The position numbers and the translations under genes are program-made. Shown piece by piece: positions 1,889 through 34,869 of a stretch of DNA of 64,000 nt. The stretch is from NCBI GenBank assembly GCA_000004695.1, contig CM000151.3, positions 4,512,001-4,576,000 of the forward strand. Reading direction: 5' to 3'. The notes beneath the pieces were generated by a model. The model was not told the DNA's origin and made no database searches. It saw only the letters and a list, made by a program, of their open reading frames with translations. The stretch comes from Dictyostelium discoideum (Eukaryota). Numbering within the stretch: position 1 is the first letter of the stretch; the number at the start of each line of letters is the position of its first letter.

Positions 1889-4195
1889 ATGAAATTAGTT
1901 TTTATTTTTATACTTTCAATATTGTTTTTTTATATAAAACAAATTGAATCATTAACTGGTACAGTAACATTAGTTGAAGATAATTACTCTCATATTCAAT
2001 TTTGTAGGCCAACTTTTTTTGTAAATGTTACTTCAAGTGAAATGTTAAGTACCTTATATTTTAGGGATTTAAATGGTGTAACTAATGGACCAATATTTGC
2101 AGAGACATATCGGGAATTTATCAGTCCTAATTATTATCTTTCAGGATACCTTACAAGTGGTTTTTATCAACCAAATCCAATTAGCACATTGCATGCCCAA
2201 GATTCACAATATGGAAATGAACAGAATATTCAAGCAGATATTAGTTATGTTTGTGAATTGCCACCAGTTATTAATATTACCGAACCTGTTTGCATCAATT
2301 TAAAACCACTCAAATTAGAGACAACATTTTATGTCTATGTTGAAAATTTAAAAAAGAGAATTCAACTCATTGATAGTATAAATCCATCTACTTCATCTCC
2401 TTTTTCACTATTATTCATTAGCTCTGAACCATATTTCTTAAAGTTTAATTTAATTTTTGAACATTCAAATAAAGGTGCAATTATAAAATCAGAGTTTCTT
2501 ACATTTCATTTAACATATGATGTATTGACAAATTTTACATTAAATATTGTACCACCAATTAAATGTAAGTTTTTATTATTATTATTTTTATTTTTCTTTT
2601 ACAAAAAAATAAAATTACTAATATTTAATTTATTATTTATTTTATTTTAGATAATATAAATAGTGAACTTCTTAAAATTTCTCAATACCCAAGTACTTCA
2701 TATACTACATCGAATAATTGGGATATTAATAATATGGTTTTTATTAAAGGTTCAAATATTGATCAAAATTTATTTTTATATGGTCTTTATAATTCAACTA
2801 GTATCTTTGATAAAAATCAATTTTTCTCTTTAGTTTCTGGAAATAATACCAATGGAAAATTTTTGTTTGTGTCCTCTTCTTTTCCAGTAAATAGAGATTT
2901 AACTCCATCCACAATAAATTTCAATCTTTTTGACTATGGTAACCAAAGTAATTTTGATGATTCTTCTATTACAAATGATGGTAATTATTATTATTATTAT
3001 TATTATTATTATTATTATTATTATTATTATTATTATTATTATTATTATTATTATTATTATTATTATTATTATTATTATTATTATTATTTCTTTTTAATAT
3101 TATTATTAATTAATTTTTAAAATTTAAACTTTTAGCTATTTTATCTAATTTTGTTAATTTAGGTGCTCTAGAATATACTACACCATTTAAATGGAATAAT
3201 TTTTATTTTACTTGTAAATATCCAGATGATTATAAATTATCTTTAAAGTTTGGTTTAAATAATTATTTTTCACCTATTTATCCATTTGGTTTAATGAAAT
3301 TAAGTACTGATGGAAGTTGTAAATTTGATGTAAGTACTTTAAATAAGGATAAATTTTATTTATTATTATTGTTATATAAAATTAAATTTATTAATATTGA
3401 TTAATTTTTTAAAAGTTTAAATGGGCTAAAGGATCAAATGAAGTTACACTTTTATCAGATACAGGTCATAGATATTATTATCCACCAACTACAAGTGCTG
3501 ATGCATCTAAACCAACTTTTGTTGATTTTCAATTATTTTATCCAAGAGGTGGTGATGGAAATTATGCAATATTAAGCGCACATATTATTGATTCTGGTTC
3601 TGGTTTCTCATTTTTATACTATGGTGGAAATTATATAACAGCTGCAGATTTAATAAATGGTACAATTAATGATGGTTTTTATGAAAAATTAATATATGTA
3701 ACATTTGATACCACATGCCGAATTGGTGATATTGATTCAAACATTGATTTATGTAATCCTGATCCTTCCAATCAAAACATTAAATTTTATTATGGTTTAA
3801 ACCCATCAGATTTTATACCTTATTTAGTTGGTAAATATTTTTTTTTATTTTTTATTTTATTTTTAATAATATTAATTTTTAATAATATTAATTTTATTTG
3901 TATTTTATTTTTTTTATATAAATTAGATACTGATTTTGAAATTACAAGATTTGATTTTGAAAGTTCAGTTTATGATATATCGGAATCTGGTAAATTAGTA
4001 ACATTTTATTTAAATTATTCAAAAGCTCAATCAGATATTCCAATTTCTTTCTTTTTAACAGATAGAAATTATGGTGATAAATATATTGATATAAATAGTA
4101 AATCAAATCGTTATTTAATGGATAAAGATTTAAATTTATTTAAAATCACATTTTATATCCCACCAAAATTATGTACTGGTACCTTACCATTTTTA
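1889..4195 (+). CDS. 5' part (exons 1-5) of a large secreted/type I membrane protein gene with an EGF/TIG-like domain, truncated by a transposon insertion
   Basis: The ATG at 1889 is followed by a hydrophobic signal peptide (MKLVFIFILSILFFYIKQIESL). Exon model: 1889..2564, 2651..2980, 3136..3329, 3416..3830, 3927..4195, with GTAAGT/GTAAAT/GTAATT donors and AT-rich introns ending in AG. Phases are consistent across all exons. The frame runs into an in-frame stop at 4208-4210 inside the transposon TIR. The protein aligns with the paralog at 30146..34869. Confidence 0.6.
2984..3087. repeat. (TAT/ATT)n microsatellite of about 35 units, lying in intron 2 of the membrane protein gene
   Basis: A perfect trinucleotide run. 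The ORF track reads it as poly-Tyr (ORF 2734..3120), but it falls between a GGTAAT donor and an AG acceptor, so it is intronic. Confidence 0.8.
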
Positions 4196-33100: not shown

Positions 33101-34869
33101 AAGAAATTGATATTTCCAGTAATTTAAGAGATGTAGTAATAGGTTTTAATGCTGTTGATTCAGAAAGTGGTTTAAAGAAGGACGCATTACCAATGGTTTA
33201 TTTATCAAGTGTAGATCTCGATAAAATTGAATGTCCAATTATTAATGTTACTGTTATAGATAAATTCAATTCCCTATATCGATGCACAGTAAATGTACCA
33301 CTTGGTTTTGGTTACCCATATGGACTTTTAATATCAATATATGGATTGGTTAATAATGGTGGTACTTTTGGTGGTTACAGTACAGCTGATTTGAAAGAAA
33401 ATGGTTTTCCTCACTCCATCAATACCACATTTGCATTGGGTTATCCAATTATTGAGGGAGTTGGTAGAATTTCGACACTAGGTGGTGAAATTTGGATTAC
33501 AGGTAAAGGTTTATTGGGTGTAGATTATGCTATTTTAGAATCTAATAAACTTTTGGTCTCTAAAACTATTGGAAACTCAGCCATTTTATTAACAGGTATA
33601 CCATCATTGACTCCAAATACAAAATATTCTATTTTCGTTGTCAAAGGAGCATATATTTCGAATCGAATTGATTTCATACCATATGAAAAGGTTATTGGTT
33701 CTCCCTCTCCGACAGAAACTCCTTCAACAACTCCTTCAACAACTCCTTCAACAACTCCTTCAACAACACCAACTATTAAATGTTCTGGTACACCAGAATG
33801 TGGTGGTTCATTAAAAGGTTATTGTAATTCTGGAAATTGTGTTTGTTTTTCACCATGGATTGGTGTTGATTGTACATCAAAAATAATTTTAGTTGAACCA
33901 CCACGAGTTAATACAAGTGACCCATCAAGTGAAATTGAAACACCCATTTCAAATAGTTCGAATATTAAAGAAGCAGCAGTTTATAAATCATTTGTAGCAT
34001 TAATAGCACTAAGAGAACTTGATTTTAATGATGTAGTAATTAATCAATATTATTTTAGTAAATGGTTATTCAGTGAAATTAGTCCACTATCTTCAAAATA
34101 TATAACAAACATTACAAATAATGATGGTAAATCAATTTCACAAGTTACAGCTATAACTGAATGGTTCACTAAAGAAACAAACATATCATTTGGAGGTAGT
34201 GATTTAACAATGAATCCGTCATCATTAAAATATACTATTTCAATTGATTCTTATCCATTTAGAGATAAGCTTTGTAGATTAGAATTATTAATGTCTGCTT
34301 CTTTTACATCTTCAAAAACTGATGATATTTGTTCATCGCAAGAATTTACAACAACAGCAGCAGCAGCAAACTCAAAGGATGACAATGAAATTAGTGGTGG
34401 TAATAACTATTTAAAGATTCAAATTGGTGATCACTCAATGTTTGCAAGATTTTTAAAAAGAGGAATTATTGATGATAAAACTATCACTGTAGATAATAGA
34501 CAAATCATTAATGATGATAAAACTACTTCAACAATCGAAAACTCTGGATATCATTCAAGCGCATTAATTGGTATCCTTATACCATATTTTAGAAATTATT
34601 CTACAATAGATCCAGATTTCTCTGTAATAATAGATAATCAATCATCTTCACCCTCATCACCAAATTCAATTTGTTCACAAACTTCAAACTCTGGACTTAG
34701 TAAATCTTCTCTTGCTGGTATTATAATTGGTGGTGTTGCATTTTTCTTGGTAATTGTCATTTGTATTATATACTTCCTTTATAAGACTAACCCAGTTCCA
34801 TTTAAATTAATTAAACAAAGAATTTTCCTTGGTTGTTTTATTTCCAAAAATTTTAAATCGAAATATTAA
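30146..34869 (+). CDS. Intact paralog of the transposon-interrupted membrane protein gene: signal peptide, TIG-like repeats, EGF-like Cys-rich module, TM helix (7 exons, about 1370 aa)
   Basis: Approximate exons (+/-1-2 nt): 30146..30530, 30659..30931, 31017..31322, 31472..31711, 31803..32108, 32185..32559, 32642..34869. All junctions are phase 1 and the total is divisible by 3. The C-terminal ORF carries CSGTPECGGSLKGYCNSGNCVCFSPWIGVDC, ALRELDF, TMNPSSLKYTISIDSYPF and a TM helix (IIIGGVAFFLVIVICIIYFLY). These are co-linear with 7702..9351. The exon ending ...LPGKIPFALFFKNDLFILGQSLGPNAEFNVISE aligns across the transposon insertion point of the paralog. Confidence 0.7.

Follow-up and report, generated by a model that had tools for sequence, protein, structure and literature searches.

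The stretch of DNA considered here, called the window throughout, comprises 64,000 nucleotides (nt) of the Dictyostelium discoideum genome (assembly GCA_000004695.1, contig CM000151.3, positions 4,512,001 to 4,576,000 of the forward strand), and positions are counted from its first letter. Two large genes, gene A at 1889-9351 and gene B at 30146-34869, encode predicted single-pass membrane proteins of 1380 and 1393 amino acids (aa), the former once an insertion has been removed. Their start and stop positions are exactly those proposed in an earlier note on this DNA, and the gap between them, 20.8 kilobases (kb), agrees with the separation of about 21 kb given there. It is probable that both belong to a large family of type I membrane glycoproteins that is specific to dictyostelids, that they diverged from each other long ago, and that gene A has been split in the AX4 reference by a recent, strain-level insertion of a TDD-4/5-type transposon.

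After excision of window positions 4198-6985, gene A has six exons, and the rejoined product equals, residue for residue, P0152, the intact allele of D. discoideum assembly GCA_054883475.1. The empty insertion site is found in L003, a locus from another D. discoideum assembly. The exons of gene A are as follows.

1889-2564, forward strand: exon 1, encoding the signal peptide and N-terminal ectodomain and ending in phase 1; the joined exons translate to P0152.
2651-2980, forward strand: exon 2; the joined exons again translate to P0152.
3136-3329, forward strand: exon 3, with its acceptor as in the P0152 model, ending in phase 0.
3416-3830, forward strand: exon 4, which holds DUF7743 (about 3500-3748; PF24893, E = 9e-11).
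3927-4197, forward strand: exon 5, 5′ part; the megablast alignment to the L003 empty site stops at 4197.
6986-7068, forward strand: exon 5, 3′ part; the preceding 6983-6985 (AAT) repeats 4195-4197.
7178-9351, forward strand: last exon, encoding the C-terminal domains, the transmembrane helix, the basic tail and the stop.

Phase 1 is found in four of the five gene A introns. Nearly all of intron 2 (2981-3135) is taken up by an (ATT)n microsatellite some 100 nt long. Two acceptors, 3135 and 3162, could close this intron; they lie 27 nt apart and keep the frame. The choice differs between newer strain annotations and the AX4 model DDB_G0274923, in which exon 3 starts at 3163.

Gene B has seven exons, separated by introns of 76-128 nt with GT..AG borders, all six in phase 1. 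The predominantly phase 1 pattern that had been noticed in both genes is therefore a genuine common feature.

30146-30530, 30659-30931, 31017-31322, 31403-31711, 31803-32108 and 32185-32559, forward strand: gene B exons 1-6, about 91-128 aa each, with phase 1 introns.
32642-34869, forward strand: gene B exon 7, encoding the C-terminal domains, the transmembrane helix, the tail and the stop; its incoming splice is confirmed by P0001.

P0001, a D. cf. discoideum protein, supports the splice into the last exon. In tblastn searches of the D. cf. discoideum locus (L001), residues 1-121, 129-220, 220-316, 424-526, 525-651 and 652-1393 of the gene B product fall into separate high-scoring segment pairs, one model exon to each, and exon 4 has no counterpart there. 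Compared with gene B, its orthologue in D. cf. discoideum is missing about 505 base pairs (bp), with L001 9380-9400 corresponding to window 31292-31797, a gap that spans the end of exon 3, intron 3, all of exon 4 and intron 4. A straight read-through is out of frame, and the gene is annotated in that species as four fragments. Gene A is broken and gene B intact in AX4, while in D. cf. discoideum gene A is intact and gene B possibly broken.

The inverted repeats and the exact empty site in L003 show that the interruption of gene A is a true insertion. The features of the inserted DNA are listed below.

4198-6982, reverse strand (integrase gene): inserted DNA transposon of 2785 bp, absent from L003, with inverted repeats and integrase domains.
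4198-4414, no strand assigned: left terminal inverted repeat, in which the 22-nt motif TTCACTACAGTAGCGTAGTGAA occurs twice.
6742-6958, plus 6959-6982, no strand assigned: right terminal inverted repeat, the final 24 nt being without a left-end partner.
6207-6452, reverse strand: integrase H2C2 zinc-binding fragment (PF17921, E = 4.8e-9, 36.7 bits, over the curated cut-off).
5560-6103, reverse strand: integrase DDE core fragments, with CIDSFTKF, WHCDNGREF and QGMVERLN read in translation and weak matches to rve_3 (E = 6e-4) and rve (E = 0.01).

L003 is 99.5-99.9% identical to window positions 1-19436, minus 4198-6982, and its empty site reads CCATTTTTAATCATTATT. The sole duplicated bases at the junction are AAT (4195-4197 and 6983-6985). 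Because the empty site places the end of the insert 24 nt past the inverted repeat, the reading frame of gene A is resolved; a plain TTTA or TTTTA target-site duplication was rejected, as excision on that basis left gene A out of frame. The inverted repeat pair (4195-4414 and 6742-6961) is 220 nt long and 79% complementary. The 22-nt motif occurs four times in the window, twice at each transposon end and nowhere else, against an expectation of 0 by chance.

The insert appears to be a cut-and-paste DNA transposon of the TDD-4/5 type (Ginger2/Tdd), an assignment made by comparing its inverted repeats and integrase with published descriptions. TDD-4 (3839 bp) and TDD-5 (3783 bp), of the Ginger2/Tdd group, are the sole Dictyostelium inverted-repeat DNA transposons reported to carry a Gypsy-like integrase (PMC2836005). 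The insert resembles them in its long terminal inverted repeats (about 220 nt here, 260-297 nt there), in a Gypsy-like integrase with H2C2 and DDE parts, and in residing in the D. discoideum genome. The AAT-only duplication and the unpaired 24 nt could be explained if the target duplication was originally 5 bp long, AATCA, and a microhomology deletion then removed 26 bp at the left junction. The undeleted transposon terminus would then be GTTGTAGGGAATTTTCAATAAAAT at both ends, and loss of the left terminus would leave this copy immobile. A second copy of the transposon was found neither in the window nor in five fetched loci.

Since an intact allele is present in a conspecific assembly that is 99.5-99.9% identical, the insertion is a recent strain polymorphism and not a species-level loss. 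Intact alleles or orthologues of gene A, encoding 1377-1388 aa, occur in three D. discoideum assemblies as well as in D. cf. discoideum, D. dimigraforme and D. firmibasis, and D. purpureum has a full-length homologue. The earlier note had seen in this locus a possible snapshot of paralog loss. One copy is indeed disrupted in AX4, but the wording is too strong for an event that, given the intact conspecific allele, amounts to a polymorphism between strains.

As a consequence of the insertion, gene A appears in the AX4 annotation as a pair of hypothetical genes. Their proteins, DDB_G0274923 and DDB_G0274925 (P0153 and P0154), match the window exactly, read-through into the transposon included, so that the window is AX4 chromosome 2 or a sequence identical to it. 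The frame of DDB_G0274923 ends four codons inside the transposon (...LPFLISLQ, then a stop). The first exon of DDB_G0274925 consists of five codons, MIVLL (about 6522-6536), within the transposon, and its product has no signal peptide; a start exon of this origin and the missing signal peptide point to an annotation artefact. Together the two models look like annotation artefacts of one disrupted gene. It could be argued that the halves function as two separate genes, or that the transposon landed in a gene A that had already become a pseudogene. The AX4 annotation does contain two protein-coding genes, and the first half keeps the promoter and signal peptide, from which a secreted 623-aa fragment could result. 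However, excising 4198-6985 gives an uninterrupted open reading frame identical to the intact allele, which means that gene A carried no earlier lesion, and the second half would have to start from MIVLL in the transposon. Both proposals are therefore very unlikely. Most probably, the AX4 allele of gene A yields no membrane-anchored protein. The reference carries gene A as an allele made null by a transposon, although other D. discoideum isolates have the gene intact and it is conserved across group-4 species; for users of AX4-derived strains gene A is a natural knock-out.

The two proteins share one order of modules: a signal peptide, a family-specific ectodomain of about 650 aa, DUF7035, DUF7034, an IPT/TIG-fold domain, a Ser/Thr/Pro linker, the EGF-like DUF7949, a galactose-mutarotase-like supersandwich (ComC_SSD), a transmembrane helix and, last, some 25 aa of basic tail. 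Pfam recognizes DUF7743, DUF7035, DUF7034, DUF7949 and ComC_SSD in A, and the same set minus DUF7743 in B. DUF7035 and DUF7034 stand in tandem and score 43.8 and 53 bits in A and 103 and 114 bits in B (the cut-off for both is 27 bits). In the last exon of gene A, DUF7035 lies at 7186-7545 and DUF7034 at 7681-7950, followed by a poly-Ser linker, DUF7949 (8329-8421) and ComC_SSD (8482-9126). Exon 7 of gene B encodes DUF7035 (32644-33042), DUF7034 (33070-33435), the IPT/TIG-fold domain (about 33445-33684), a (PSTT)n linker, the EGF-like DUF7949 (33781-33885) and ComC_SSD (PF22933; 33949-34629). In both proteins a single DUF7949 module is followed by ComC_SSD and then by the single transmembrane helix.

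The set of DUF7035, DUF7034, DUF7949 and ComC_SSD recurs in 28-30 of 30 sampled relatives, and DUF7743 in 19 of the 30. Of the 1019 cluster representatives (50% identity) that an exhaustive profile search recovers at E <= 1e-3, 415 also reach E <= 1e-30. Almost all have a length of 1300-1430 aa, with the profile match at residues of about 630-1380, and those that have been named are called 'EGF-like domain-containing' or hypothetical proteins. Members come from D. discoideum, D. cf. discoideum, D. citrinum, D. dimigraforme, D. firmibasis, D. purpureum, Polysphondylium violaceum, Tieghemostelium lacteum and Heterostelium album. Of the four dictyostelid groups, at least three (2, 3 and 4) have the family. 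A and B are further members of this catalogued but functionally uncharacterised family.

The paralogy of A and B that the earlier note proposed is supported by a BLASTP alignment with 27.5% identity between residues 470-1376 of A and 472-1393 of B (E = 3e-66). Over the N-terminal part the pairwise signal is weak (E = 2e-6 for residues 470-755 and 1e-3 for 341-699), and no pairwise similarity is detectable in the first 340 or so residues. A hidden Markov model (HMM) was therefore built from the N-terminal halves of 115 other members, with the A and B lineages excluded. It matches residues 4-650 of B (E = 1e-53) and 1-653 of A (E = 1.5e-37), each as a single end-to-end domain, from which it follows that A and B are homologous over their full length. 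The doubt raised beforehand about the N-terminal two-thirds is thus removed: similarity there is faint in the pairwise comparison, but the family model covers both N-termini significantly. Two gene A introns match gene B introns exactly in family-alignment column and phase, and two more do so within eight columns.

Evolution by local duplication, as the earlier note pictured it, does not fit this pair. A recent tandem duplication, with the transposon marking a redundant copy on its way to being lost, would account for two genes on the same strand, 21 kb apart, with similar lengths and intron phases. Against it stand an identity of just 27.5% and the similarity ranks, since B is only 47th among the BLASTP matches of A and A 128th among those of B, which already implies that the two are not sisters. 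By sequence similarity each appears closer to dozens of other family members than to the other. The closest relatives of gene A are those of D. cf. discoideum (90% identity), D. dimigraforme (71%) and D. firmibasis (65%). Its D. purpureum orthologue is 51% identical over the C-terminal and 32-37% over the N-terminal half, whereas gene B is only 25% identical to that protein; the split between A and B therefore predates the divergence of D. discoideum and D. purpureum. Finally, COQ9, a Sel1-like gene and myosin VII separate A from B. Recent duplication is accordingly a very improbable origin, and ancient divergence within the family is preferred.

Several sequence motifs on which the earlier note relied recur in both proteins. 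The signal peptide is common to the two genes, an N-terminal hydrophobic peak being shown for B, and both the quoted EGF-like motif and the ALRELDF...NPS.LKY.IS.D.YPF motif are found in each. The EGF-like module was correctly called at the motif level: its six cysteine columns are invariant in an alignment of 27 sequences, and its C-terminal end (CVCFSPWIGVDC in B, CNCKSPYSGINC in A) fits the PROSITE EGF_1 pattern C-x-C-x5-G-x2-C, with weak matches to EGF_TEN (teneurin), EGF_2 and ADAM22 EGF. Hydropathy gives a single C-terminal transmembrane peak in each protein (9211-9267 in A, 34720-34776 in B), after which some 25 residues remain, in line with the single helix and short tail described before. 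The tails (9268-9348 in A, 34777-34866 in B) share a basic C-terminus of the form ...RIF.(Y)K.FK..K(K)Y. This type of tail is seen in about 15 of 139 long family members, the others carrying a KK(R)K...KLK..N-type tail, and the gene A tail contains YKLF, a Y-x-x-hydrophobic motif. There are 22-24 N-x-S/T sequons per protein.

The TIG-like module is a different case, for it holds at the level of predicted fold and has no Pfam TIG match. Residues 915-1072 of B were modelled with AlphaFold from the 27-sequence alignment, with a predicted local distance difference test (pLDDT) score of 86.8. The seven-strand, Ig-like sandwich at about 920-1000 superposes best on IPT/TIG domains, with CAMTA1 TIG and EBF1/3 IPT/TIG retrieved by Foldseek. 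It is the one IPT-fold domain found, and it was found by structure alone. The Pfam TIG model (PF01833) has no match at E <= 1 in A or B and matches none of the 30 sampled relatives at E <= 0.01. The ALRELDF...YPF domain, modelled with AlphaFold over residues 1062-1342 of B (pLDDT 85.4, predicted template-modelling score 0.83), is a two-sheet supersandwich, for which sequence profiles find no relative in the PDB.

These results bear on the suggestion that A and B belong to the tgr (Tiger) family of allorecognition and adhesion proteins. This family is defined by a transmembrane segment and repeated IPT/Ig-like E-set domains (IPR002909/PF01833) (bioRxiv 10.1101/2025.10.22.684067; PMC3188802), and the text of the tgr preprint does not contain the word 'EGF' (bioRxiv 10.1101/2025.10.22.684067). 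A and B resemble TgrB1 and TgrC1 as single-pass membrane proteins with a signal peptide and at least one IPT/TIG-fold domain, and both evolve faster than neighbouring genes. Both groups are large dictyostelid families of single-pass surface proteins built from Ig-like/IPT-fold domains, and both show birth-and-death dynamics with pseudogenes that vary between strains. However, the repeated, sequence-detectable IPT/Ig-like E-set domains expected of tgr proteins are missing at the stated thresholds, and in their place is a fixed architecture of DUF7035, DUF7034, DUF7949 and ComC_SSD in proteins of about 1380 aa, whose EGF and supersandwich modules lie outside the tgr definition. Nor is tgr-like hyper-polymorphism seen in A or B: the gene A protein is unchanged in the conspecific L003 allele, unlike the extreme polymorphism of tgrB1 and tgrC1. 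Membership was rejected because IPT repeats and domain order do not agree, the two families being set apart by description and by domains, and it is extremely unlikely that A and B are tgr proteins.

The DUF-defined glycoprotein family may act at the cell surface. From their architecture, we infer a function in cell-surface adhesion or signalling, by analogy with ComC. A and B would be heavily N-glycosylated receptors or adhesion molecules, whose beta-sandwich domains form a long chain raised above the membrane by a Ser/Thr/Pro stalk that is probably O-glycosylated. As the tail of about 25 aa has no signalling domain, any signal would have to pass through lateral partners, and the supersandwich with its transmembrane helix is a plausible docking module for them. 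At the level of modules, not of family, A and B recall plexins, Met/RON and teneurin-type EGF, but they differ from plexins and Met/RON in lacking Sema, PSI and kinase domains and in having a single IPT and a single EGF module.

ComC offers the closest point of reference. Kibler et al. reportedly described in 2003 a role of ComC in intercellular communication during aggregation, and it is said to be the sole genetically studied protein to lend its name to the supersandwich domain. ComC is a protein with a signal and a transmembrane segment and EGF domains, restricted to group 4 (PMC4931340), and the comC mutant shows aberrant aggregation (PMC2873529). A and B likewise place a membrane-proximal, ComC-named supersandwich after one EGF-like module. 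They are separate, uncharacterised loci, however, and the likeness is one of domain name and description.

A contrasting possibility is that the family consists of endolysosomal or phagosomal membrane proteins, in which the supersandwich, transmembrane helix and tail act like GLMP, the accessory subunit of MFSD1, by shielding or stabilising a multi-pass transporter. The topology is the same, with a lumenal or extracellular supersandwich, a single transmembrane helix and a short tail, and YKLF in the gene A tail fits a Y-x-x-hydrophobic sorting motif. The gene B tail has no tyrosine motif, however, and the likeness to GLMP is confined to fold and topology, with 10% identity and no sequence-profile match to it or to any other PDB entry. 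Many carbohydrate-active enzymes, as well as YidC P1, share the fold at nearly equal Z, and the N-terminal ectodomain of about 1000 aa, whose IPT and EGF modules are typical of surface receptors, has no counterpart in GLMP. ComC genetics, which points to cell-cell communication, was also counted against an endolysosomal role. The proposal is unlikely as an account of the whole family; the resemblance suggests, weakly, that the supersandwich and transmembrane module could dock on a multi-pass protein.

A number of observations weigh against the reading of A and B as surface glycoproteins of one family, with A split by a TDD-4/5-type element. At 2785 bp the insert is about 1 kb shorter than TDD-4 and TDD-5 (3783-3839 bp), it is flanked by a 3-bp AAT duplication in place of the reported 5-bp target-site duplication, and its right end has 24 unpaired nt; its likeness to these elements is one of description. 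The N-terminal 623-aa fragment of gene A could still be secreted in AX4. The exact 1393-aa model of gene B has no match in the protein collection, so the reference annotation may use other splice sites at one or more introns. The ComC link comes from a Pfam family name and from the work attributed to Kibler et al., and ComC itself may share the whole architecture. Surface localisation, glycosylation and a role in adhesion or signalling are likewise read from the architecture of the predicted proteins, and a literature search on the gene identifiers and DUF names returned nothing.

Both genes are constrained yet fast-evolving, as is usual for extracellular proteins. Compared with D. cf. discoideum, the ratio of nonsynonymous to synonymous substitution rates (dN/dS) of gene B is 0.22-0.70 per exon (0.37 in the last exon), against 0.10 for myosin VII. 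For gene A, compared with a divergent 'D. discoideum' lineage and with D. cf. discoideum, it is 0.29-0.34, against 0.017-0.018 for phosphofructokinase (PFK). Outside AX4, purifying selection acts on gene A, and the gene is conserved in species of group 4. In the same two comparisons, gene A exon 4 (3416-3830), which holds DUF7743, reaches 1.37 and 0.90, respectively, over 138 codons only, with values between about 0 and 0.66 in the other exons. The divergent lineage is a 'D. discoideum' assembly carrying P0003 (L004, L005), whose synonymous divergence from the window at PFK (39-1136) is about 0.07. Divergence between conspecific strains is typically about 0.3% (bioRxiv 10.1101/2025.10.22.684067); the PFK value lies far above this, and the assembly may represent a cryptic species, like 'D. 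cf. discoideum'.

With some 1000 representatives, dN/dS values of 0.3-0.7 and strain- or species-specific disruptions (gene A in AX4, loss of gene B exon 4 in D. cf. discoideum), the family might form, alongside tgr, a second set of surface recognition receptors that evolves by birth and death and is directed at kin, prey or bacteria, and in which a GLMP-like module couples a variable ectodomain to a multi-pass partner. This is a speculative and rather unlikely extension. More modestly, A and B are now placed in a very large family, on a scale comparable to tgr, that could bear on dictyostelid cell-cell interactions. The observation is real but ordinary, and current understanding is not overturned by it.

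PFK is encoded at 39-1139, upstream of gene A. COQ9, the Sel1-like gene and a class VII myosin gene with MyTH4-FERM domains (24134-29848) occupy the 20.8-kb gap between gene A and gene B. The G+C content across the window is 15-37%.

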